From sequence record CP113993.1: DNA of 64,000 nt; one strand, written 5' to 3'. The notes below the pieces were generated by a model, which saw nothing but the letters and a program-made list of their open reading frames with translations, was not told the DNA's origin and searched no databases. The stretch comes from a plasmid. Shown piece by piece: positions 27,036 to 41,247 of the stretch (its first letter is position 1; each line of letters starts with the position of its first letter). The position numbers were made by a program, and so were the translations under genes.

Positions 27036-29345
27036 ATGGAGTTATGGATATTTATAATAGCTATTTATTTGATTTATATTCTTTTTTTCAAAAAGAAGAA
27101 ACCTAAGTCCGCGGGCTCTTATACTTCCGCTCCTGTGAAAGCACCACCTAAAGAATGGCTTGCTAACAACAAAAAAAATCAGGCGGTAATGCACAACGAT
27201 GACAGCGAAGATGACAATCTGGCTACGTTTACACTAAGTGGCGGACGGAATGTCGAATACAGCATAACAGCCACTCAACGCCAGAATCTCTCAAAAAATA
27301 CCGGTGCTTTGGCTCGCTGGATTTTACCGGGAGAGGTGATCACAGTCGGTGGGGTAGAGGTTACCGGTGCCCACTTCTATCTTGGACAGCGTATGAAACC
27401 TGCCGGGCATAACTCAGGTGGTTATTATGATGATAGTAGCGAGGCATCGCTAATTGACGACACGCTTAAGATATACCCCACACCTTACATTTACGAAGAT
27501 AGTTCATTAGGGTATTGGCCCAGTTTTTCCTCACTTTCACCTGAAGCACGTGGTGCGTACCTGAGTTGGCTTGCCAGCGACAGATGTGACACTTCTTGCC
27601 CAATTGGTTACGTTTTTATTTATCTGTATGGTCTGGAAAGACGGGCGCTTGTTGACAGCAGGGACAACAATATATCTGACGATGAGTTCTATTCTCTTTT
27701 CAAAGAGATCTGCCGTCTCAGATCGGTTTTCAATGAAAACCGATCTTTCCGGAACTACTCGTCCCAGCTACTTGAAGCGATGTCCATTCTTCGCCCGAAC
27801 GAAAATCTTGCAGCAGCTCTCGTCAATGATTCGGAGTTCAGCAATAGAATGCAATTCAGGCTAATCCTGGCAAAGACAGTTGAGGCAGGAGCCCCGGTGC
27901 CAGCTGATCTGGCTCTGACGTGGGTGACAAACCATACTGAATACTCATTGCGAACCCCTGCCCGCCGTTGCGCGAAAGAATTTGCTGCACTTTTTAAACG
28001 GCGTTACACCCTTAAATACGGTGAAGGGATGGTAGTGAAGCCGAATAAAGCGCGTCTGCGTTTAGATTACACACCTGCAAGTCCCAGTTTGCGAGGTATT
28101 CGGCTTCCTGTTCCCGACTTGCCTGATCCAAGTGCATTGAAAGGCCCTGTTCAGCAGCTTATGACCCTTGCCGATATATGCACAGATGAACTAGATGCTT
28201 ACAGTCGTTACCTTGGTAGAAAAGGCACTTCAGCAAATGATACCGCTGCAATTTTGTTGCTGCCTTCAGAAATCGTTAACGAAAGCGCAGAAAAAATATT
28301 AAGTGCATTCAAACGCTGGGCTGATGACGCGATCCTCAGTAAGGGTGGAGTAGTTTCAGTTGCTGACTACTGGTCACATATGAATGCTACCTGTCCGGCG
28401 AAGATCAATAAAAAAGAGGCCGACTTGATGCAGGCCTTTGCACAGAAAATGGGGTACTGTCTGGCTCCTGACCCCTATTACCACCACGTAAAGGCAGATG
28501 TCGATGGTGTTCTTGTTTTATTCCCTGCAGGAGAAGGTGGACGCTTCTCACCTTCTCCTGAATTTATCACAGCTGTATTGACGCTCCGATTAGGTGCGGT
28601 AGTCGCCTTGATTGACAATTCTCTCGATCAAGCCGAACAGAAAGTGCTCGAGAATGCCATCAACAACAATGCCGGCTTCAGCGATGATGAAAAGCGCTCT
28701 CTACACGCATATTTAACGTGGCAGCTTCATACCCCGGCGAACATGACGGGAATGAAGAGCCGGATTGAATTACTTGATACTGCGGAAAAATCAGCTGTTG
28801 GTAAGGTTATCGTTAGTGTTGCTTGCTCTGATGGCAGAATTACGCCTGCCGAAATCAAACAGCTTGAGAAGATTTATACAAGCCTGGGGCTGGATCCCTC
28901 ATCCGTATCAAGCAATATCCACCAGCATTCCGCAACTGAAACTGCTCTCGTTTCATCTGTACCAGCTAATCAGTCGACGGCAGGGTTTACACTGGATGCC
29001 AACGTACTTGCCCGCCACGAATCTGCCACTGATGATGTTCGTAAATTACTGAACTCGATTTTCACTGAAGAAGAACCAGAACAACCAGAAAGCACTCCAG
29101 CCTCATTAACCGGGGAAGGGGGCCTTGACCCCGCTCATAGCCAACTTTATCGCAGGTTGCTGGAGAAAGAACAATGGTCCAGAAAAGAGGCGACAGAGTT
29201 ATGCAGTAACTGGAACTTGATGCTCGGCGGTGCGCTTGAGGTGATCAATGATTGGTCCTATGCGGTGGTTGATGCACCAGTGCTGGAAGATACTGATGAT
29301 CATATTTGGGTTGACCTGGAAATAGCCAAAGAATTAGAGGGTTAG
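27036..29345 (+). CDS. TerB-N/TerB-C domain protein with N-terminal TM helix; Shango SngA-like
   Basis: 769 aa; N-terminal hydrophobic helix; C-terminal TerB-like motif VSVACSDGRITPAEIKQLEKIYTSLGL; first of three co-directional genes with 3-bp gap to next. Confidence 0.55.
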   Translation: MELWIFIIAIYLIYILFFKKKKPKSAGSYTSAPVKAPPKEWLANNKKNQAVMHNDDSEDDNLATFTLSGGRNVEYSITATQRQNLSKNTGALARWILPGEVITVGGVEVTGAHFYLGQRMKPAGHNSGGYYDDSSEASLIDDTLKIYPTPYIYEDSSLGYWPSFSSLSPEARGAYLSWLASDRCDTSCPIGYVFIYLYGLERRALVDSRDNNISDDEFYSLFKEICRLRSVFNENRSFRNYSSQLLEAMSILRPNENLAAALVNDSEFSNRMQFRLILAKTVEAGAPVPADLALTWVTNHTEYSLRTPARRCAKEFAALFKRRYTLKYGEGMVVKPNKARLRLDYTPASPSLRGIRLPVPDLPDPSALKGPVQQLMTLADICTDELDAYSRYLGRKGTSANDTAAILLLPSEIVNESAEKILSAFKRWADDAILSKGGVVSVADYWSHMNATCPAKINKKEADLMQAFAQKMGYCLAPDPYYHHVKADVDGVLVLFPAGEGGRFSPSPEFITAVLTLRLGAVVALIDNSLDQAEQKVLENAINNNAGFSDDEKRSLHAYLTWQLHTPANMTGMKSRIELLDTAEKSAVGKVIVSVACSDGRITPAEIKQLEKIYTSLGLDPSSVSSNIHQHSATETALVSSVPANQSTAGFTLDANVLARHESATDDVRKLLNSIFTEEEPEQPESTPASLTGEGGLDPAHSQLYRRLLEKEQWSRKEATELCSNWNLMLGGALEVINDWSYAVVDAPVLEDTDDHIWVDLEIAKELEG

Positions 29346-29348
29346 TGA

Positions 29349-30665
29349 ATGTCTGTAACACGTATAAGAGTGAAAGAGCGCGACGCTATTATTCAGTCAC
29401 TTAAGTCAGGAGTAACGCCAAGGATAGGGATTCAGCATATCCAGGTTGGCCGCGTGAATGAGATAACCGCCCTCCATCAGGATATTGAACGGATTGCTGA
29501 TGGAGGGGCGAGCTTCAGACTTATCATTGGTGAGTACGGTTCCGGGAAAACGTTCTTTTTAAGTGTTGTGCGGTCTATTGCGTTAGAGAAGAAGTTGGTT
29601 GCGGTCAGTGCAGACCTTTCTCCCGACAGACGTATTCACTCATCGGGAGGTCATGCTCGTAATCTCTACTCAGAGCTTATGAAAAATATGTCCACCAGAA
29701 ACAAACCAGATGGCAATGCGTTACTTAGCGTTGTGGAAAGGTTCGTTACTGAGGCAAGGAAGGAAGCTGATGCGAACGGCTCCCAAGTCTCATCCGTTAT
29801 TCATAAACGCCTTGCTGCTTTGTCAAATATGGTGGGCGGATATGACTTTGCGAAGGTCATTGACGCATTCTGGCGCGGGCACGAGCAGGATAACGAAACC
29901 TTAAAATCCAATGCCATTCGCTGGTTGCGGGGCGAATACACCACCAAAACTGATGCCCGTAATGATCTCGATGTCCGAACTATTATCTCAGACGCCTCAT
30001 TCTATGATTCTTTGAAGTTGATTAGCCTTTTTGTCCGTCAGGCAGGCTATGCCGGACTTTTAGTTAGCCTCGACGAGATGGTGAACCTCTTTAAGTTGAA
30101 TAATACGCAAGCGAGAACAGCCAACTACGAACAGATCTTGCGGATCCTGAATGACTGCCTGCAAGGCTCCGCCGAAAATATTGGTTTTATCCTCGGGGGG
30201 ACGCCAGAGTTTCTTTTCGATCCACGTAAGGGGCTCTACAGCTATGAGGCGCTCCAGTCGCGTCTGGCAGAAAACCGATTCGCACAGAAAGCAGGCGTGA
30301 TTGACTACTCGTCTCCCACGCTGCATCTTGCCAGCCTCACTCCTGAGGAACTGTATATTTTACTGAAAAATCTTCGTCATGTTTATGCTGGTGGAGATCC
30401 CGCGAATTATCTGGTGCCAGATGATGCTCTGACCGGGTTTCTGCATCACTGCAGCAAAACCATCGGAGATGCTTACTTTCGTACTCCCCGCAATACCATA
30501 AAAGGTTTTCTGGATATGCTAGCTGTGCTGGAGCAAAACAGAATGATGAACTGGCAAGCGCTCATCGAGGGAGTGGCGATTGAAGAAGACAAGCCCAGCG
30601 ATATGGATGACACCACTGTGGAGGAAAGCGATGACGACGACGGCCTGGCGAATTTCAGACTATGA
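29349..30665 (+). CDS. P-loop ATPase (DUF2791/BrxD-like); Shango SngB-like
   Basis: 438 aa; Walker A GEYGSGKT, Walker B-like LLVSLDEM; 4-bp overlap with downstream helicase gene. Confidence 0.6.
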   Translation: MSVTRIRVKERDAIIQSLKSGVTPRIGIQHIQVGRVNEITALHQDIERIADGGASFRLIIGEYGSGKTFFLSVVRSIALEKKLVAVSADLSPDRRIHSSGGHARNLYSELMKNMSTRNKPDGNALLSVVERFVTEARKEADANGSQVSSVIHKRLAALSNMVGGYDFAKVIDAFWRGHEQDNETLKSNAIRWLRGEYTTKTDARNDLDVRTIISDASFYDSLKLISLFVRQAGYAGLLVSLDEMVNLFKLNNTQARTANYEQILRILNDCLQGSAENIGFILGGTPEFLFDPRKGLYSYEALQSRLAENRFAQKAGVIDYSSPTLHLASLTPEELYILLKNLRHVYAGGDPANYLVPDDALTGFLHHCSKTIGDAYFRTPRNTIKGFLDMLAVLEQNRMMNWQALIEGVAIEEDKPSDMDDTTVEESDDDDGLANFRL

Positions 30666-32884
30666 GCAGTGCCTACAATAGTCTCGATCCCCGTGTCCGT
30701 AAGTGGGTTTATAAGCAGGACTGGTCATCATTAAGGCCCTTGCAGGAGAGTTCTATTCCGGCAATTTTAGCCCGCGATCGTGATGTACTAATTAGTGCAG
30801 GTACAGCAGCGGGTAAAACAGAAGCTTTCTTTCTTCCTGCCTGTTCGGCGGTTGCAGATCTCACCGGTGGATTTGGCATTATCTATATCAGCCCGTTGAA
30901 GGCATTGATTAACGATCAGCACCGTCGTCTCGAGAGTCTTGGTGAAGCCCTGGAAATGCAAGTGACGCCCTGGCACGGGGATGTACCACAAAGCAAAAAA
31001 AAGAAAGCACGGACAAACCCGTCTGGCATCTTACTTATCACACCTGAATCACTTGAGTCTTTGCTCATAAACTCATTGGGTTGGCTCAAACAGGCGTTTT
31101 CTTCAGTGGCATACATTGTTATTGATGAGTTCCACACTTTTATTGGCTCAGAGCGTGGTATACAGCTGCTTTCTCTGCTTAATAGAATTGACCATGTGCT
31201 AGGACGCCAGTTAAATCCAATTCCCCGTGTCGCGTTGAGTGCCACGCTGGGAGAACTGGAAAAAGTGCCAGAACTATTGCGCCCGGATAAGAGATTACCT
31301 TGTGAAACGGTAACAGACAGTAATAGCACAGCCACACTACAGGTTCAGGTTAAAGGTTATCTTGAGCGGGAGCCCGAAAAAGGAGAAGAGCTCCAGAGCT
31401 CTGCCGAACAGCTCGTCTGCGCGGATATTTTCAGGCTCTGCCGTGGCGATTCCCACCTGGTCTTTGCTAACAGTCGAAAGCGTACTGAAAGCATAGCGGC
31501 AACACTGAGCGACATGTGTGAGGCAAATGTCGTTCCTAATGAATTCTTTCCTCATCATGGTTCCCTGGCCAGGGAGTTACGTGAGACGCTTGAAGCCCGA
31601 CTGCAGAAAGGGAATTTGCCCACAACCGCTGTTTGTACAATGACGCTAGAGCTGGGTATTGATATTGGTAAGGTGCAGTCGGTCATACAAGTTACACCTC
31701 CGCATTCTGTTTCCAGTCTGCGTCAACGTATGGGACGTTCAGGGCGGCGCGATTCCCCAGCGGTACTGAGAATGTTAATTACTGAACCTGAACTTACCGC
31801 AACCAGCAGCATTGTGGATCATTTACGTCTGCAGTTGGTACAGGCGATGGCAATGATCAGGTTGATGATCTCTAAACGCTGGTTCGAGCCTGCAGATGTC
31901 CGGCAGAAACATTACTCCACGCTGCTACACCAGATCCTTGCTATTACTGCGCAATGGGGCGGAGTTCGTGCCGATCAGCTCTGGTCACAACTTTGCCAGA
32001 CAGGTCCGTTCCGGAATGTCGATATAAATGACTTCAAAAGTCTGCTTAAACATATGGGGATATGTGGCCTGCTTACTCAACTTGCCAGCGGTGAAATAGT
32101 TGTCGGGGCTGAGGGGGAGAAGCTGACTAATCACTACACGTTTTATGCCGTATTCAATACACCTGAGGAGTTTCGAATCGTTACAGGAAACCGAACTCTT
32201 GGCACAGTGCCTGTAGACTCCCCACTTTTGCCTGAGCAGCACATCATCTTCGGCGGACGGCGCTGGAAAGTGACAGAGATCGAGGTTGAAAAAAAGGTTA
32301 TCTATGTTGAGGCGACTAAAGGCGGACAGCCGCCACTATTCAGAGGTAGCGGGATGTCTGTTCATGATGTTGTTCGCCAGGAGATGCTCGCTATCTATAG
32401 GGAAAATGATTACCGTATCGCGGTAGGCAGCAAGAGAGTCGATTATGCTGATGCTGCTGCCAGAAGCCTCTTTGCGGAAGGCAGTAACAACTTCCAACGC
32501 TACAATCTACAAAATGACTGTTTTATTGCCAGCGGTCAGAACTGCTACGTGATCCCGTGGATGGGGGATAAAATTGTCAATACAATTACGTCCCTGCTTA
32601 TACGTTGCGGCTTTAAAGCCAGTTCATTTGCAGGTGCGATAGAGGTAGAGGATTCAAACGTTGCCTCTGTTCAGCGTGCACTTAAGAAAATGCTATTGTC
32701 AGGGTTACCTTCAGAGTTTGAACTTGCTGCAGTTGTTCCTGACAAGTATCTGGATAAATATGACGAGTATTTACCAGAGTCTTTGCTTGCGAAAGGGTAT
32801 GGGGCAAAGGCGTATGATGTAGAAGGAACGTGCATCTGGCTGCAGAAACACCTTCAGTCGACTGGATATGTAGTCAGGGTATAA
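30662..32884 (+). CDS. DEAD/DEAH-box (Lhr/BrxHI-like) SF2 helicase; Shango SngC-like
   Basis: 740 aa; motif I GTAAGKTEA, motif II VIDEFH, motif III SATL, motif VI QRMGRSGRR. Confidence 0.7.
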   Translation: MSSAYNSLDPRVRKWVYKQDWSSLRPLQESSIPAILARDRDVLISAGTAAGKTEAFFLPACSAVADLTGGFGIIYISPLKALINDQHRRLESLGEALEMQVTPWHGDVPQSKKKKARTNPSGILLITPESLESLLINSLGWLKQAFSSVAYIVIDEFHTFIGSERGIQLLSLLNRIDHVLGRQLNPIPRVALSATLGELEKVPELLRPDKRLPCETVTDSNSTATLQVQVKGYLEREPEKGEELQSSAEQLVCADIFRLCRGDSHLVFANSRKRTESIAATLSDMCEANVVPNEFFPHHGSLARELRETLEARLQKGNLPTTAVCTMTLELGIDIGKVQSVIQVTPPHSVSSLRQRMGRSGRRDSPAVLRMLITEPELTATSSIVDHLRLQLVQAMAMIRLMISKRWFEPADVRQKHYSTLLHQILAITAQWGGVRADQLWSQLCQTGPFRNVDINDFKSLLKHMGICGLLTQLASGEIVVGAEGEKLTNHYTFYAVFNTPEEFRIVTGNRTLGTVPVDSPLLPEQHIIFGGRRWKVTEIEVEKKVIYVEATKGGQPPLFRGSGMSVHDVVRQEMLAIYRENDYRIAVGSKRVDYADAAARSLFAEGSNNFQRYNLQNDCFIASGQNCYVIPWMGDKIVNTITSLLIRCGFKASSFAGAIEVEDSNVASVQRALKKMLLSGLPSEFELAAVVPDKYLDKYDEYLPESLLAKGYGAKAYDVEGTCIWLQKHLQSTGYVVRV

Positions 32885-33182: not shown

Positions 33183-33794
33183 TTACATCTGGCTTAAATT
33201 TTTCTCAGCCCAGATGCGCTTTCCATCAAGTAACGTTTCCATCGGCGTCCGGCCGCAGCACATTTTCCCCTGATGGGTTCGCTCATTGTTATAGTGAGCC
33301 AGCCATTCATCAAGATCGGATTGTAATGTATCAAGATCTCCATATAACTTTTTGCGGAACGTCACCTGATAAAACTCGTTCAGTATCGTTTTGCGGAACC
33401 GCTCGCCGATCCCGTTGGTCTGAGGGGACATTGCCTTCGTTTTCGTGTGTTCGATGTCATTTATCGCCAGATAAAGCTGATAATCATGCAGCTCCACTTT
33501 ACCGCAATACTCTGTGCCCCTGTCTGTCAGTATCCTCAGCATCGGCAGGCCCTGAGACTCATAAAACGGAAGGACACTATCATTCAGTAAATCAGCCGCT
33601 GTAATCGGCGTTTTGGTAACATAGAGCTTGCAGTGAGCCACCTTCGAGTACGTATCAACGAACATCTGCTGATAGATTCGCCCGACGCCTTTCAGGTTGC
33701 CCACGTAGAACGTGTCCTGTGACCCCAGATATCCCGGATGAGCGGTTTCAATCTCACCACAGGCTTCATCATCACTGGCTTTACGCTCCGGCAT
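33183..33794 (-). pseudogene. 5'-truncated DDE (rve) transposase catalytic domain (IS481/IS3-family-like)
   Basis: GSQDTFYVGNLKGVGRIYQQMFVDTYS...LTDRGTEYCG...ERFRKTILNEF integrase-core motifs; no HTH N-domain upstream. Confidence 0.55.
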
Positions 33795-34387: not shown

Positions 34388-34720
34388 TCAGCTCAGAATG
34401 GCTTCCAGTCGGGCCAGCACTTCATTTACGACAGCTTCGGGTATACGTTCCAGACGCTTACCATTCCGGGCACCCATATCAATCGTTCTGGGCTGGTCGC
34501 AGCGAATAACACCCGTTGTTTTTGTTCCCGCGCCGTCCAGGGAGACGGTAAAACCGGCTGTGCGGGCAAAGTCTCCGCCGCTGGTGACGGGAACGACAAC
34601 GGGTAACCGGGTGAACTTATTAAATGATGCCGGAGAAACGATAAGTACCGGACGTTTTCCGCTTTGTTCATGTCCGGCTGTAGGATCCAGTGAGACGAGC
34701 CAGATTTCCCCTCTGTCCAT
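34388..34720 (-). CDS. chpB: MazF/PemK/ChpB-family endoribonuclease toxin
   Basis: 110 aa; GEIWLVSLDPTAGHEQSGKRPVLIVS...RLPVVVPVTSGG close to ChpBK/MazF; adjacent to antitoxin. Confidence 0.8.
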   Translation of the reverse strand: MDRGEIWLVSLDPTAGHEQSGKRPVLIVSPASFNKFTRLPVVVPVTSGGDFARTAGFTVSLDGAGTKTTGVIRCDQPRTIDMGARNGKRLERIPEAVVNEVLARLEAILS

Positions 34721-34978
34721 TTACAGGATCTCCTTACCCACTGCAGGCGCATCCATCCATTCCCTATCCTCATCGCTCATTTCGGCGTGCGGATCGCACT
34801 GTGCCAGCAGTTCCTCAAGCGAATAACGGGGCCGTTTCTGGGGTTCAATAATCAGGCAGCCATTATCAATGGTCATTCCCACTTCGCTGTCTGTCGACAG
34901 AGCCAGCGTTTTCAACACGGCGGGAGGAACCGCCAGCATGACGGATCCGCCAACCTTTTTCAGACGAGTGGTATACAT
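34721..34978 (-). CDS. chpS: MazE/ChpS/PemI-family antitoxin (AbrB-type)
   Basis: 85 aa from internal Met MYTTRLKKVGGSVMLAVPPAVLKTL; SpoVT/AbrB swapped-hairpin motif. Confidence 0.75.
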   Translation of the reverse strand: MYTTRLKKVGGSVMLAVPPAVLKTLALSTDSEVGMTIDNGCLIIEPQKRPRYSLEELLAQCDPHAEMSDEDREWMDAPAVGKEIL

Positions 34979-35588
34979 AGAGCACCTCCGGATATTATAT
35001 TTTAATATAACATCAATGGCTGGCGGAGCGCAATTTTTAGTCAGATTCATTATGGTTTCCTTAGTGTAGCTAAGCGTAAAGGAGGCCTTAATCCGTCCTA
35101 AGACAGATCCGGCAGTTTTCAAAGGCTGCATTACCGGTAAAACGGCGACCATCCTGATACATCAGGCGCTTCTTTCAGGTCATGAAGCATTTTGTGCAGG
35201 CGGGAGCTTAGTTCGTGGTAAGAAGGCCGATAATAGAAAACTGTTTTTGCGGTTCAAAGGGTTATGGCGGATCAGATAACCGAAATGCGGCGCAGCTTCC
35301 GGCACGGACCTTCTCCGGAGAAGTATCAGCGATAGTACAAAGGCCATATTAGTTCAGATATGACACCCGGCAATTAGGCAAGAGAAAAAAGGACGAACAC
35401 GCGTTTACAGAGAACATATGACCTAAAGTAACAATATGACACAAGACTAATCATAACGTTACAAAATATATCATGCTCATTGATTTATAAAGAAAAATTA
35501 ACCACAACTATTGCAATGTCATCCGAGCGGCGTAACATAAATTGTTGAAATATTAGTCGCCGAAAAGTCGAGATAGATGAGGTGATAT

Positions 35589-38450
35589 GTGAATCCCCCT
35601 TTACTGCGTTCCTATAATGCCGTTATCAAACATACGTTATCCCAAGCAAAAAAATCCAGAACAACGAAACACATTGCCGGTTTTTGTCAGTTACAGGGGC
35701 CCACGGGCAGTGGAAAAACTAGCGCTCTCTACCGTTCTGGCTTCGCCGATAACGTCCCTCCGGCGTTGGAGACAATAAAAAAATCAGACTCTCAGGCCAT
35801 TCTGGTTACCCATCGCTGGAATATACTCCACGACATTTACGAAAAAACAGGTTCGCATGAAGACAGTAATGGAAAACCATTTAACGTTAGTGTGCTTTAT
35901 GCGCAGGATGAACAAATTGTTTCTGCAATCGAGGTTACGCCACTACCTCATGAGAAAGATATTTCCGCAGATTCACTCCCGGATCCCTTTAATTCCATCA
36001 ACGAACTTGAGGGAAAAAACTTATTTGTCGACCCAGATATTGCAGACAAACTGCGTAAGAATTGCAGGAATATCCTGTATATCAATAAATTATTGAAAGG
36101 ATACCCGGCACATTTACGTGCAGCTATCGCCAGTGAAAAAGAGGCGTTAATAAAATCATGTGCGGCAGTTGAGATATCGTTAATTCAAAATATCAAATTG
36201 CTGGAAAAAGAAGCCAGGAAGCAAAAAGAAAAATATGGTGAAGAACATGAACTCTTGCAGGCCGCCAAGCAACGAGTTGATGACTTCCGTCGTCATGCCT
36301 GGGTCAGACGCATTCTGCCCGCCATCGCTTGGCGCGACGAAAAACAACACCTGCTGATTATGACAACCCAAAAGCTCGTTTCATCATTTTACGATGGGCG
36401 GCGCAAAGTACGAATGTCCAGCAAAGAGCTGCGCAATTATGTCATTTTTATTGATGAATTTGATTATCAGGCTGAGGTACTACAGGAATATCTGGCGCAA
36501 GCTCAATGGGTTCAGGAACCGCCTGAATGCTTGGGGCAGTTACTCGAGGGGGGACGCAGATTACTGCAACGAATGCAGTATGTTGAAACAGCACCTGCCC
36601 CGATGATCCGTGAACGTCTTGGGACATTTCTTAACAAACTGGATGACGCCTTAAAAGGAAAAAAATTGATTTAACTCATGCCAGATCGCTAGTAATTCCT
36701 CTGCAAAGATATCTGGATAATAAACCCTTCGGTGAACATTATTTATTTCGCTCCGATCAACTGGTAACCAGTGAGCGCCTTATCATGCGACAGGCTGAAC
36801 ATGGCTACGAAATTATCAGACCAGATTCCTCATTTCAGGATAACGATCAGGCTATCGACATCAGTGATTTTTTGCGCCTGATGGAAAAGTTTATTCGAAA
36901 GTTCAGTCTGATGTTAACGGACCTGACAGCCAGCGAAGATGAAACGTATGAATACATCAAAAAGTTAACCCGACTTCTGTTCGACCCGGTTAATGACTAC
37001 AGACCGTCATATTATGGTTCAACCCTGCCAAATATGTCCCGGTTTTTGTTACCACGTACCGATCTGCCTGAACTGCGGGAACTAAGAAAAAGTAATATTT
37101 TGCCCAATACACATGCCAGTATTTTTGGGTTAACTAACTGGTTGCTGAAACAAAATGTTGTGGATACCGATATCGATCCATTACGAATACAGATCAAGCG
37201 TGCGTTCTTGCCAACAACAGCAGAAGGTTTACTACTGTCACTAGCCAGCCGTAATCTCGTTTTTGCACTGTCGTGCCACATCATATATTGAAAGAGCCTG
37301 CAACCACTTTGATGTCCGGTGGATAAACTCAGCCTTACGCTATATTGCAGAAGCACGTAACCCTACAGTTACGGAAAGCTTTCTCGGAACTACTTTTGAA
37401 AACCGACCTGATTCCTGGTTTAAAGAACCGATGCCCTACGTTCAGACCGATGATGACCTTCAGTTACAAAATACCGCGATTGAAGAAATCAATCGCAGCA
37501 AGGAAAGCATCAGAAAGACACAACTGAATACTGAGATCCATGATTTTAATAGAACAAAGAACAGCCCGCATTCAGCCGATCTTCTCGCTTCTCTGCCCCC
37601 CGATTTTTTCCAGAATGATGATGAACCTTCAACAGATTTCGAATCAGAATATCGCCAGAATATTCTACTTAAACTGCTTGATGTGCTGGATCTAGCAGGA
37701 AAAAGGCCTCAGCACCGAGGGCATCTGGCTTTTGTTAATTCCATATCTTATTTAAGAAAATGGCTAACCGCTGCAATAGCGACACAAAGCAGAGATTGCC
37801 TCACATGGTTAAAGCTGGATCCGCCTTTATCCGACAATCTTCTGCTGAAGAATTTTACTGATGTATTTATCCCGTTGACTATACATAACGAGCCCGCACT
37901 AATCTGTCTGTTAACCGCAGAATGTCAGAAAAGAAAGGGCTTCCGTGATGCCTATCAGGCTGCATTTGCTTCCCGACGTATTGTTATTGTGCTGACACAA
38001 ACTGCCTCTGCCACCAACGGTATAAATCTGGATTTCAGCCTGCCTGAATCCGGCAAAAATATGGATTTGACCTGTTTATATTTACTGGAATCACGGCATT
38101 TTTACTTTTCCGCTTTCCAGACCATTGCAGATAGCAATGATGATATGGCACATGCAGGCTTCCAGTTACGCAATCTGGAAAAACTACTACGAGCAGGGGA
38201 AATTTCACGTAAACAGCATCAGCGCTTCATCCTGCCACTGATGTTGAACAGGAAGAACGAAATCTCCCGGTTAAACGGAGAGTATAAGAGAACCAGCGAT
38301 TATATAAAAAATACGGCAGCCAATGTTCAACAGCAGGTTGGTCGTATTGAGAGAGCCTGGTGTGAAGTACCCAACGCTGAGATTCACCTTGATGCTGAAC
38401 TAGCAAAAGACCTGTCCCGCTTTGCTTCATTACCTATCTATACCCAATAA
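35589..38450 (+). pseudogene. large (~950-codon) SF2-helicase-like ATPase split into three ORFs by frameshifts at A7 and T5 homopolymers; candidate defence gene
   Basis: motif I GPTGSGKTSAL (res ~37), motif II VIFIDEFDY, motif V LTQTASATNGINLD, motif VI QQVGRIERAW; frame 0 to 2 switch at A-run 36659-36665, frame 2 to 0 switch near T-run 37260-37264; AT-rich (~40% GC) relative to surroundings. Confidence 0.5.
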
Positions 38451-38453
38451 ACC

Positions 38454-39517
38454 TCAAGATGCAGATTTCAGCACCTGAAAGTGATCATTAATTCGGGATG
38501 ACAGAGAACCTGCTATATCCGGCAGCGTCTGGTTAAAAAACTCAGATATTGCGTCCCTGAATTCCTTCGTACTACTGAAGTAACGATTATTCCGCGCATG
38601 TTCGTTCATTAACTTCCACATTCGCTCTATCGGATTCAGGTTCGGACTGTAAGGTGGAAGATAATGTAGCCTGATATTTACCACCTCCGCCCAGTCTTTC
38701 ACTAACTGTGAACGGTGATAACCTGCGCCATCCAGAATAACGTGAATTTTCTGGTTGTAATCAGGATAAACCTTTCGTATCTCATTGAAAAAACGGGATA
38801 CGTTATATTCATTAATCGTTTTATATTCGCAGATTAGCGGGTATTCCGGGGTCTTCAGATTCAGCGCCCCCATGATATTCAGCCGCGTACGACTGCCTGT
38901 TGTTTTTACTGCTTTTTTTCTGGCCTTTGCATATCCAGCCGTAGCTGATTTTTAGTGGCCTGAGTTGGATGGACTCCATCAATAAAAAGAACCGGTTCAT
39001 CACCCACGGTTTCTTTCAGTTCCTCATAATATTCAATAAATTGTCTTTGTTTCTCTTCACTGAACTTATGGGGGACGCCTGACGGCTTTTTGTAAGTGAA
39101 GCCGTTACGATGCAGCCACTTGTTCATGCCCGGAACGCTGAAAACGATGTTCCATGTCCGGGCAACAAACGCAATAACATCGCGGGCATGGTGAAACAAA
39201 TTATCGGTTAACTGACTGATTAAAAAGGCTGTTTGTTCAGCACTGAGTTTACTGTCTGAGCCGCCGTTTTCGGGCTTCAGCTTCCCTTTGTTCAGAAACT
39301 CGCTGATATGGTGGTCAACGGTCGTCTGATGCAGGCGCAAAGCCTGAGCAATCATGGCAGAACTCCAGCCTTCGGAGGCCAGAAGAATGGCTTTAATACG
39401 ATCCCTGACTCGCCCGTCACGACTGGAATCGTGAAGGCGCTCAAGTTCAGCTTTTTGTTGGTCAGTGATGAATATTTTCATGGTGAGCAGCATGATCTCC
39501 TGTTGCCGAAAAATCAA
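38454..39517 (-). mobile_element. IS630-family (Tc1/mariner-type DDE) insertion sequence, transposase in two ORFs
   Basis: ORF 38906-39517 (HTH part, MKIFITDQQKAELERL...) and ORF 38454-38873 (DDE part VILDGAGYHRS...LPPYSPNLNPIERMW). Confidence 0.75.
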
Positions 39518-40023
39518 GCATCTTCAATGATCACGGGTATATTATTGTAAATATGTGAGGAACTCATAACAATCTCACCCTGCCTGTTCATATACCCCCC
39601 GTCAGCACCCACCAGACCTGAAATACTGATTAACTGTTCAATATCAAATACGGGGGCTGGTTTTATAAAAACCAGTTCGGTGTAGGTATGTTTATCCTGC
39701 CAGAATAGTCTGACCTGATAATGAAGCATATACTTTATATCAGAAGAAATTACCCCCATTTTTTCTAAAGCGGTAATATCATAAGTCTGAATTTTCTTAC
39801 TTTCTTCTGTTACCGGCCAGCTGAATTGCGCTACACTGCCTGCTATGTATGACAGTTGTTTGGCAATCAGATTCGCTGTTGTAAATTCACGCTCCTGATG
39901 GAGATAATAAACCCCGCCCAGAACCCCTAGCACAAACAGAATAATAACAAAAGCCACTTCTATTAATGTGAATGCCCGTTGAGACTGCTTTTTTTTACTG
40001 AGGTGATTCATCTGCCACACCAT
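39514..40023 (-). CDS. type IVb pilin-like protein (prepilin-type N-terminus), 3' end abutting/possibly altered by IS630
   Basis: 169 aa; class III signal-like QRAFTLIEVAFVIILFVLGVLGG with Glu+5; stop codon overlaps IS630 transposase start. Confidence 0.5.
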   Translation of the reverse strand: MVWQMNHLSKKKQSQRAFTLIEVAFVIILFVLGVLGGVYYLHQEREFTTANLIAKQLSYIAGSVAQFSWPVTEESKKIQTYDITALEKMGVISSDIKYMLHYQVRLFWQDKHTYTELVFIKPAPVFDIEQLISISGLVGADGGYMNRQGEIVMSSSHIYNNIPVIIEDA

Positions 40024-40078
40024 GTTTTATTTTCTGCCGCACAGTGGTATCACGACTCCTTCCGGGGGATAGTAGTTT

Positions 40079-40507
40079 TCAGGATATATTTTTATGAAAC
40101 AATTTCACATACCTCGCCTTAACCTTCTTGATATATCGTTTTTTCAAGCGAAGTGTACTGGAGTGATAACGCCCCACGCCTTCCCATAAATCACCATTTT
40201 CAAGAATAATGGAGCGCTTAAGGATCCAGGTACCGACCTGAATATTAAAACAGTCATCATTCTTTAGAACCTGATAGGCCCTGTCACTATCAGAGTCAAA
40301 AAAAACTTTGCTGACCAAAGATAACCAGGCACCGGTATTGATCTGCATTATGCCCAGATCTTCTGTATTATTTTTATTTGCCACCGCCAGACCATGCCGT
40401 CCCCCCTCTACAGAAATGATACTGGTAATAATTTCTGCAGGAATATGATTTACCGCGGCCGCCTGAATGAGGCATATGTAAACAGGGATCAGACCAGAAA
40501 CAAACAT
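40079..40507 (-). CDS. lytic transglycosylase (SLT domain; BfpH/PilT(R64)-like)
   Basis: ISVEGGRHGLAVANKNNTEDLGIMQINTGAW resembles the SLT catalytic region; start chosen at internal Met to limit overlap. Confidence 0.5.
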   Translation of the reverse strand: MFVSGLIPVYICLIQAAAVNHIPAEIITSIISVEGGRHGLAVANKNNTEDLGIMQINTGAWLSLVSKVFFDSDSDRAYQVLKNDDCFNIQVGTWILKRSIILENGDLWEGVGRYHSSTLRLKKRYIKKVKARYVKLFHKNIS

Positions 40508-41247
40508 GCCATAAATCCTAACGCAAGTGCCGGCCCCATTGGTGAATACCGCATTCCTTTTAACCGCAGCGGTAGCGCATAGGAAATAAACGACAGCGAG
40601 GTAATAAGTAAAAACAGATGTAACATTTCCAGACCTAACCATGCACCAGCTGCGGTAGCCAGTGCAATATCCCCCCCGGCAAATACATCCTCTTTTTTAA
40701 CCAGCCCCGTGATCAACATCGATAAATACATTACAAAAAAGGCTAACATCGCGCCCAGAATACGCATTTCAGGTAAAATACAGAACGGAGAAAAGGCAAG
40801 GCCCAGCCAGAACAACGGATACGTGACAATCGCCGGAAGCCAGTGCTCATAAATATCAATTAGTGATAAAAAGAGCAGACTCAGAAAGATCACAATAGCC
40901 CACAATGCCGTATACATACTACCAAAGTAGATGAATATACAGACCCCTCCACATCCGCCAGCCAGTTCTAATACAGGATAACGTCTCGGAATTGGACGAT
41001 GACAGTGAGAACATCTTCCCTTTGTCAGGAAAAAAACAATAACAGGTAACAGGTATAAAAATTTTATCCGCTTTCCACAATAATTACACTGTGACGGCGG
41101 TGAACATATAGTAAATTTCTTCCGGGGATTGTCCCGCCACCCCAACTGATGTGGTAAACGTTCTGCCGCCAGACAGCAAAAGCTGGTGATCGTTGCACAT
41201 ACGATAAAGACAAAAATAATCTGAAGCACAGGAAAATCTTGGAACAT
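40489..41247 (-). CDS. prepilin peptidase (A24 family; PilD/BfpP/PilU-like)
   Basis: 252 aa; N-terminal tetra-Cys CNYCGKRI...CSHCHRPI, conserved GGDIALATAAGAWLG Asp motif, multiple TM helices. Confidence 0.8.
   Translation of the reverse strand: MFQDFPVLQIIFVFIVCATITSFCCLAAERLPHQLGWRDNPRKKFTICSPPSQCNYCGKRIKFLYLLPVIVFFLTKGRCSHCHRPIPRRYPVLELAGGCGGVCIFIYFGSMYTALWAIVIFLSLLFLSLIDIYEHWLPAIVTYPLFWLGLAFSPFCILPEMRILGAMLAFFVMYLSMLITGLVKKEDVFAGGDIALATAAGAWLGLEMLHLFLLITSLSFISYALPLRLKGMRYSPMGPALALGFMACLFLV

Follow-up and report, generated by a model that had tools for sequence, protein, structure and literature searches.

A degraded ddmD-like gene in the pESI-type megaplasmids of Salmonella enterica serovar Infantis

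Positions 35589-38442 of a 64,000-nucleotide (nt) stretch of the plasmid record CP113993.1 (the window, to which coordinates refer unless another locus is named) very probably represent a recently inactivated and fixed pseudogene derived from a DdmD-type helicase-nuclease gene; DdmD is the effector in a two-gene, DdmDE-like system directed against plasmids. The gene is interrupted by three lesions, which are fixed across the pESI plasmids. The protein encoded by its intact relatives (protein A) is homologous to DdmD, and the protein encoded by the gene that follows it in those relatives (protein B) is similar to DdmE in its fold. An earlier note, made from the letters of the window alone, had described the locus as an SF2 helicase-like, defence-related gene interrupted by frameshifts, and this description is supported by the present analysis. 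The same note regarded the gene as an orphan or single-gene system without a partner, and could not place it in any named system. Neither view holds, as the intact relatives are paired with a DdmE-like gene of ~818 amino acids (aa), which has been lost here at an insertion sequence (IS) of the IS630 family, and the product is a DdmD homologue of the DdmDE type.

The locus consists of three plus-strand open reading frames (ORFs) of 361, 168 and 395 aa, with coordinates as reported in the earlier note (Table 1), and is annotated in RefSeq as three coding sequences (CDSs) for hypothetical proteins. Fragment 1 covers codons 1 to ~357 and includes helicase domain 1, with the Walker A motif GPTGSGKT (K43), the Insertion region and motif II (DEFD, 289). 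The stop of this fragment, a TAA 7 nt after the A7 run, is a product of the first frameshift. Fragment 2, as defined by homology, corresponds to the Arch-like region, and the annotated start of ORF 2 is ~40 codons downstream of the point at which the homologous coding sequence begins. Fragment 3 represents helicase domain 2, with motif V (TQTASATNG) and motif VI (QQQVGRIERAW). In tblastn comparisons with protein A of Escherichia coli LF82, fragment 1 is 82.8% identical to residues 1-360, residues 355-563 match positions 36650-37276 in frame 2 at 92.8% identity, and fragment 3 is 86.4% identical to residues 563-952.

Addition of one A to the A7 run and removal of one base near 37270 produces a stop-free frame of 951 codons, in which GPTGSGKT is found at residue 37, DEFD at 289, TQTASATNG at 803 and QQQVGRIERAW at 914. 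Helicase motifs I, II, V and VI are all present, as first noticed; motif III (LSATSY) had not been listed. A joined frame of ~950 codons had been proposed, and is borne out insofar as it contains no stops, but it amounts to only the first 73% of a gene of ~1299 codons. The repaired frame is 97.1% identical to residues 1-951 of the intact protein from Salmonella India and is free of stops, and the decay is therefore recent. The GC content of the remnant was measured as 43.6%, rather than the ~40% originally estimated, and is below that of the window (49.3%); the adjacent Shango genes have 47.9%.

Table 1. Features of the ddmD-like pseudogene and its surroundings in the window
Feature	Position	Strand	Details	Basis
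ORF 1, fragment 1 of the ddmD-like pseudogene	35589-36674	+	361 aa	ORF list
ORF 2 as listed by the ORF finder	36785-37291	+	168 aa	ORF list
Fragment 2, homology-defined	36666-37273	+	Codons ~358-562; -1 frame relative to fragment 1	Homology
ORF 3	37263-38450	+	395 aa	ORF list
Fragment 3	37275-38442	+	Codons 563-951; same frame as fragment 1	Repaired frame
Frameshift 1	36659-36665	+	A7 run, 1-nt deletion; A8 in the S. India and S. Macclesfield copies	Alignments
Frameshift 2	37274	+	Single inserted T, GTCG^GCC to GTCGTGCC	Alignments
Truncation junction	38439-38443		TATAC; last bases shared with intact ddmD-like genes, first of the IS630-like element	Alignments
Shango, intact	27036-32884	+	SngA 769 aa, SngB 438 aa, SngC 740 aa	PADLOC, 1e-101, 2e-185 and 2e-278
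PemK toxin	34388-34720	-	Divergent from the pseudogene	Annotation and Pfam PemK_toxin in six contexts
PemI antitoxin	34721-34978	-	Divergent from the pseudogene	Annotation and Pfam PemK_toxin in six contexts
IS630-family (ISEc40-like) element	38436-39542	-	91% identity over 1107 nt to ISEc40 of E. coli APEC IMT5155	Comparison with ISEc40

The lesions were mapped by alignment of the window with the copies from E. coli LF82 and SC418, S. India and S. Macclesfield. The first is located in the A7 run, as previously suggested, with A8 found in near relatives. The second had been assigned to a position in or near the T5 run (37260-37264), but is actually the T inserted at 37274, which is 10 nt downstream of that run, between G and G, and not part of any homopolymer or repeat. 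This T falls inside the invariant helicase motif III (S562-A563-T564), converting LSATSY to LSCHIIY followed by a stop, and puts reading back into the frame of ORF 1, so that the ~205 codons between the two lesions are out of frame with it. The third lesion is a truncation. Homology to intact relatives ends at 38442/38443, at codon ~951, and a TAA at 38448-38450 lies 5-7 nt beyond the junction, within IS-side sequence. The lost 3' part includes the last ~348 codons (~952-1299), with all of the nuclease residues, and the whole of gene B; an IS630 insertion or a rearrangement removed both. No trace of the C-terminus of protein A (347 residues) or of protein B was detected by tblastn in the 64-kb window, and no adjacent DdmE-like gene was found with protein B in the window or in the pESI plasmids. 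The same queries against the 72,556 plasmids in PLSDB returned the same six records only, none of them pESI. With two frameshifts, a truncation and no nuclease domain, the window copy has no uninterrupted helicase-nuclease ORF. Programmed frameshifting was considered and rejected, because the relatives are in frame at both sites.

Intact A genes are single ORFs of 1299-1319 codons with no internal stops, followed by a B ORF of 813-822 codons (E. coli LF82 and SC418, S. India, Serratia, Vibrio and a cyanobacterium). On E. coli chromosomes (LF82, SC418 and ~24 others) the homologue is 82-85% identical to the window copy and is a single ORF of 1299-1300 codons, with an ORF of 816-818 codons behind it (LF82_RS10435-RS10440 in LF82); the intact A-B pair in the S. 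India record is 96.6% identical. The nearest relative, on the conjugative IncFIB plasmid of S. Macclesfield (L004, NZ_CP022118), is 99.75% identical, with 9 substitutions, and is found in the same Shango-PemIK context. This copy lacks all three of the pESI lesions and has an intact DdmE-like gene, but its ddmD-like gene is split by a 5-bp deletion of its own (TCAAT) at the equivalent of window positions 36503-36507 (L004 ~10102), an inactivation that arose independently, on a second conjugative plasmid. In a Citrobacter record, the 5' end of the ddmD-like gene contains an IS1. The chromosomal copies that were read directly (E. coli LF82 and SC418, Serratia, Vibrio and the cyanobacterium) are intact.

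Homology searches extended the family to 74 A proteins, nearly all of 1280-1330 aa, and 63 B proteins of ~800-835 aa, all of them unnamed. The hosts include Klebsiella, Serratia, Erwinia, Photorhabdus, Vibrio, Alteromonas, Rheinheimera, Endozoicomonas, cyanobacteria and one spirochaete, and A and B are direct neighbours at all loci examined, among them those of Vibrio, the cyanobacterium and Serratia. The DdmE-like homologue of K. quasipneumoniae (P0092) is only 452 aa long (54% coverage, 92% identity) and is accompanied by a full-length A; the partner gene appears to be broken in this chromosome. Two of the records, L005 (NZ_CP022016, S. India, 473 kb) and L006 (NZ_CP056241, C. freundii, 82 kb), are labelled as plasmids, yet are non-mobilizable and carry chromosomal genes (amn; cbl, nac, hypF and fdhF), with a cbl-nac flank that marks the same chromosomal site as that of the LF82 island. 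Their plasmid status is doubtful and they look chromosomal, which matters when plasmid and chromosomal copies are compared.

A profile of protein A matches DdmD of Vibrio cholerae in the PDB (8u0w, 8u0u, 9bf1, 9ezx and 9khv; E=1e-20). The match falls into two stretches, with residues 251-607 and 809-1209 of A aligned to 226-581 and 724-1113 of DdmD, and covers the helicase and the C-terminal PD-(D/E)xK nuclease. The profile also matches DdmD of L. casei (9ix4) at E=1e-8. Residues K43, D289/E290, S562-A-T564, G918/R919/R922, D1172 and D1183/K1185 are invariant in 27 of 27 A members. The helicase core of the intact family is complete, with Walker A, motif II, motif VI (QQxxGRxER) and the Insertion and Arch regions, and the C-terminal nuclease pattern D...D-x-K is supplied by D1172 and D1183-A-K1185. 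The last two residues named, D1183 and K1185, align to D1100 and K1102 of V. cholerae DdmD, which have a catalytic role and without which plasmids are not eliminated (Loeff et al., bioRxiv 10.1101/2024.05.10.593530). The long stretch between motifs I and II, which the earlier note put at ~250 aa and considered unusual, is ~245 aa and normal for the A family, and DdmD itself has an 'Insertion' domain at this position (bioRxiv 10.1101/2024.10.09.617351). Scans of the fragments, of full-length A and of B with Pfam, NCBIfam and PADLOC gave only sub-threshold P-loop/DEAD matches, and single-sequence phmmer searches of A and B against the PDB gave no match. A weak similarity of fragment 1 to PbeC (1.2e-5) dropped to 0.096 with the full protein.

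For protein B, the comparison depends on structure. AlphaFold2, given 28 family members, produced a confident model (pLDDT 83.1, pTM 0.80), whose six best Foldseek matches in the PDB are all DdmE. The first of these is L. casei DdmE (9ixm_B; E=3.6e-19, TM 0.52/0.58); the V. cholerae DdmE structures (9bgk_E, 8u3k_E, 9ezy_B and 8u0j_A) were matched at E=2e-17 to 4e-12, and canonical Argonautes and PIWIs follow after DdmE at ~1e-9. The model matches, together with the position of the gene immediately downstream of A in all loci examined, agree with a long Argonaute-like protein of the 'long-C' type. An exhaustive search with the B profile found 66 clusters among 1.84 billion representatives. One member, P0172, provides a transitive sequence link, matching both the B profile (3e-16) and L. 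casei DdmE (1e-5), and two weak, DdmE-sized relatives of B (P0192 and P0188) show no match to DdmE by sequence. The invariant residues Y373-x12-Q386 and E452-x3-K456 of B have the same spacing as Y363/Q376 and E401/K405 of V. cholerae DdmE (Loeff et al., bioRxiv 10.1101/2024.05.10.593530), a similarity that is pattern matching only. A copper-chaperone match of the B profile in the PDB was dismissed as spurious.

Since the A profile matches DdmD and the B model matches DdmE best, A and B would together constitute a divergent DdmDE-type system, as judged from profile and model comparisons, that is missed by Pfam, NCBIfam and PADLOC 2023. Several points weigh against reading the locus in this way. 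The PADLOC DdmD model scored only E=1.3e-3 with fragment 1 and did not match the full-length LF82 protein, and the B profile found no direct sequence match to DdmE in the PDB. The term 'anti-plasmid' is transferred from relatives at ~10-12% identity for B and low identity for A, and literature searches found no experiment on any member of the A/B clade. Furthermore, a truncated product may have some residual role, and the A8/A7 tract could in principle still slip.

By homology to the DdmDE systems of V. cholerae and L. casei, protein B of the intact system would be an Argonaute-like sensor that has no catalytic activity and carries short DNA guides; the guides of the V. cholerae system are 5'-phosphorylated (Loeff et al., bioRxiv 10.1101/2024.05.10.593530). 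Guide-loaded B would pair with complementary plasmid DNA, opening a D-loop, and would recruit A, an auto-inhibited dimer that would then dissociate. The A monomer is predicted to load on the non-target strand, to move 5'->3' using ATP, and to nick or degrade the DNA via its C-terminal PD-(D/E)xK nuclease. Decay of the window copy involved a slip from A8 to A7, with the frame lost after codon ~357, the insertion of a T that destroyed motif III, and an IS630-family element that cut the gene at codon ~951, with deletion of the nuclease domain and the partner gene. Having lost the sensor and the nuclease, and with motif III destroyed, the locus is incapable of every step of this mechanism, and the best-supported view is that it does nothing.

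The earlier note suggested that the gene might be phase-variable, a contingency gene in which homopolymer slippage toggles a single-gene defence helicase. This can be assessed from the other pESI plasmids. Positions 35400-38600 are at least 99% identical in 105 Salmonella plasmid records in PLSDB, mostly 100% among those listed, and the matching records are S. enterica serovar Infantis pESI-type IncFIB megaplasmids (e.g., pN55391) from many laboratories, countries and sources. The A7 run, T37274 and the IS630 junction are identical in ~100 independently sequenced plasmids. Length differences of 1-3 nt are found in five pESI records, with indels in G6 at 36548, in C6 at 37596, as an added A after 36920, and in one case inside the IS; the A7 run and T37274 are unchanged in all five. 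Although the first frameshift is a real change in poly-A length, from the A8 of relatives to A7, no variation in the length of the A7 run was seen among the pESI copies inspected, and the in-frame 8-nt A tract of the intact gene is an ordinary mutation hotspot and no evidence for a switch. The second lesion lies outside repeats, and the gene is truncated, so that even an in-frame product would have neither the nuclease domain nor a DdmE-like partner. A phase-variable gene is thus very improbable.

A different role for the remnant, to which a similarly slight probability is given, would be that of an anti-defence decoy. A truncated DdmD fragment, such as the 361-aa N-terminal piece with the dimerisation Insertion, might be kept and poison DdmD-like dimers of the host. 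The DdmD dimer interface does involve the Insertion and Arch regions (bioRxiv 10.1101/2024.10.09.617351), the start codon and upstream region of fragment 1 are kept, and the remnant is conserved across pESI plasmids. However, this conservation is explained by the clonal and recent spread of pESI, and the 9 substitutions that separate the window copy from its nearest relative yield no selection signal. There is also no evidence of expression, and the Macclesfield copy is broken differently, inside the region of fragment 1.

The possibility that the real plasmid has an intact gene, with the indels being homopolymer errors of sequencing or assembly, was raised in the earlier note and is yet more improbable. 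Homopolymer indels are a common type of error, and the few pESI assemblies with indels in the G6 and C6 runs illustrate this, but the same A7, extra T and IS630 junction recur in independently assembled plasmids from different countries and sources; moreover, the extra T is outside any homopolymer, and truncation by an IS is no type of sequencing error. That the locus is a true multi-gene one, with the three ORFs as separate functional subunits of a split helicase, is hardly credible despite the three RefSeq CDSs, given that the other family members are all single ORFs and not the split homologues that the earlier note had allowed for, that the splits are 1-nt indels, one of them in an invariant catalytic motif and both absent from a 99.75% identical copy, that annotated ORF 2 starts ~40 codons late, and that the catalytic nuclease is missing. 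A fixed and recently inactivated ddmD-like pseudogene is therefore the preferred reading in what follows.

The setting of the pseudogene is that of a defence island, as first proposed. The toxin-antitoxin pair upstream, described earlier as MazEF-family, is PemI/PemK, the IS630 element is found downstream, and an intact Shango system lies further upstream (Table 1). The S. Macclesfield plasmid has the same Shango-PemIK-ddmD-like arrangement (99.5-99.7% identity). PemIK is found upstream of the ddmD-like gene, and divergent from it, in all of the enterobacterial contexts examined (Salmonella, Citrobacter, Serratia and E. coli). Beyond the window, PemIK is located at 6671-7261 in L001 (E. coli LF82), 7989-8579 in L004, 3895-4485 in L005, 6989-7579 in L006 and 6167-6757 in L016 (Serratia quinivorans). 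The two are directly adjacent in pESI, Macclesfield, India and Citrobacter, separated by one small ORF in Serratia, and separated by three genes including ISEc1 in LF82. The idea that PemIK is a core third component was rejected, because no such pair accompanies the members from Vibrio and the cyanobacterium; PemIK is not part of the system but a neighbour in certain lineages. Downstream, the A-B pair is directly followed by Gabija (a GajA-like OLD/ATPase nuclease and a UvrD-like helicase) in LF82 (L001 16584-20382), SC418 (L002 16570-19599) and Serratia quinivorans (L016 14497-18298), and both Gabija genes are fragmented in SC418. An integrase-core transposase fragment of 203 aa (33183-33794, minus strand) lies between Shango and PemK, and the Macclesfield plasmid has an extra 1.6-kb IS3-family element (L004 5167-6781) exactly at window position ~33184.

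The boundaries of the IS630-family element were set by comparison with ISEc40, and an IS630 family transposase is annotated at the element in pN55391. A search for terminal inverted repeats around the element found an internal pair only, and no second IS630 copy was found in the window. The transposase gene (38454-39517, minus strand) consists of two ORFs in different frames (139 and 203 aa), annotated in RefSeq as a single CDS of 341 aa, and the ISEc40 copy of E. coli APEC IMT5155 is flagged 'internal stop'; the split may reflect programmed frameshifting or a defective copy. Type IV pilus genes follow right after the element (39514-41247, minus strand), encoding a pilin-like 'type II secretion system protein', a lytic transglycosylase and an A24 prepilin peptidase. 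Because these pil genes, and not the missing part of the ddmD-like gene, start at the IS630 element, the defence island and the pil cluster are brought into direct contact by the IS.

The A+B clade is found in E. coli LF82, Klebsiella, Serratia, Salmonella, Vibrio and cyanobacteria, and it is rare and unannotated even in well-studied strains such as LF82, having been missed by current profile libraries. A broader scenario may be put forward tentatively, although its probability is rather low. Intact A+B would be an uncatalogued enterobacterial and marine clade of Argonaute-guided, DdmDE-type anti-plasmid systems that is self-defeating on a conjugative plasmid. The Shango-PemIK-A-B island would have landed intact on IncFIB megaplasmids and then been knocked out independently in pESI (A8 to A7, the added T and the IS630 deletion) and in S. 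Macclesfield (the 5-bp deletion). A related plasmid-eliminating pair, ApsAB of E. coli ST38, combines a helicase-nuclease with an Argonaute-like protein (Zongo et al. 2024, PMC11096173). It is found in enterobacterial islands, sometimes beside Shango, is often partially deleted or inactivated, and was inactivated under selection for plasmid maintenance (PMC11096173).

The independent breakage of two related plasmid copies, set beside chromosomal copies that read as intact, fits selection against anti-plasmid systems on plasmids. That the inactivation of two truly plasmid-borne copies echoes the experimental evolution of apsAB is a hypothesis of about the same doubtful standing, drawn from very few independent lineages. 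If correct, it would provide a natural counterpart to the apsAB inactivation seen when a plasmid must be maintained, and E. coli or Salmonella strains with an intact copy on the chromosome could impede the spread of pESI, which is among the epidemiologically most important Salmonella megaplasmids. For annotation, the three pESI 'hypothetical proteins' should be re-labelled as one ddmD-like pseudogene, and should be counted neither as a defence system nor as a candidate for one.

The V. cholerae DdmDE system was reportedly described by Jaskolska et al. in 2022. Like the A-B pair, it has a helicase-nuclease gene (~1200-1300 aa) followed by an adjacent Argonaute-like gene (~700-800 aa), and both helicases carry a long insertion between Walker A and motif II. 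The differences include length, as A exceeds its counterpart by ~110 aa and B by ~130 aa, and divergence, with a structural identity of ~11% for B and a B profile without a direct DdmE match. In addition, none of the DdmABC partner system was seen near A-B, and the window copy is frameshifted and has lost both the nuclease and DdmE. The L. casei DdmDE system (9ixm, 9iw3 and 9ix4) supplies the top structural match of B, and its DdmD is also matched by the A profile, but it is of Gram-positive origin and its sequence link to B is weak and transitive, via P0172. The guide preferences of the L. casei system differ from those of the V. cholerae system, and DdmDE systems of ~14% mutual identity share one mechanism (bioRxiv 10.1101/2024.10.09.617351).

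The resemblance to type I CRISPR-Cas systems is one of analogy and not homology. In both cases a guide-bearing sensor opens an R-loop or D-loop and recruits a helicase-nuclease to the non-target strand, as Cascade does with Cas3, a parallel drawn by the authors of the DdmDE studies (bioRxiv 10.1101/2024.05.10.593530; 10.1101/2024.10.09.617351). In DdmDE, however, DNA guides are held on an Argonaute fold in place of the crRNA on Cascade, there is no array and there are no adaptation genes, and the helicase-nuclease belongs to another family.

ApsAB is similar to the A-B pair in having an SF2 helicase with a PD-(D/E)xK nuclease and an Argonaute-like protein, and differs in size (1569 aa for ApsA and 743 aa for ApsB). 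Because hhalign comparisons with the first 400 aa of ApsA and ApsB were uninformative, the full ApsAB locus from Enterobacter was used. Protein A shows a marginal similarity to full-length ApsA (E=1.8e-3, probability 15%), and hhalign found no similarity between B and full-length ApsB. The accessions and organisms of the family and the N-terminal motifs of A were not found in the supplements and tables of ApsA/DdmD-like proteins in PMC11096173. Membership of ApsAB was rejected on these three grounds: the marginal ApsA score, the lack of an ApsB match and the absence of the family from those tables. On the continuum that runs from ApsAB to DdmDE, sequence comparison places the A/B family on the DdmDE side.

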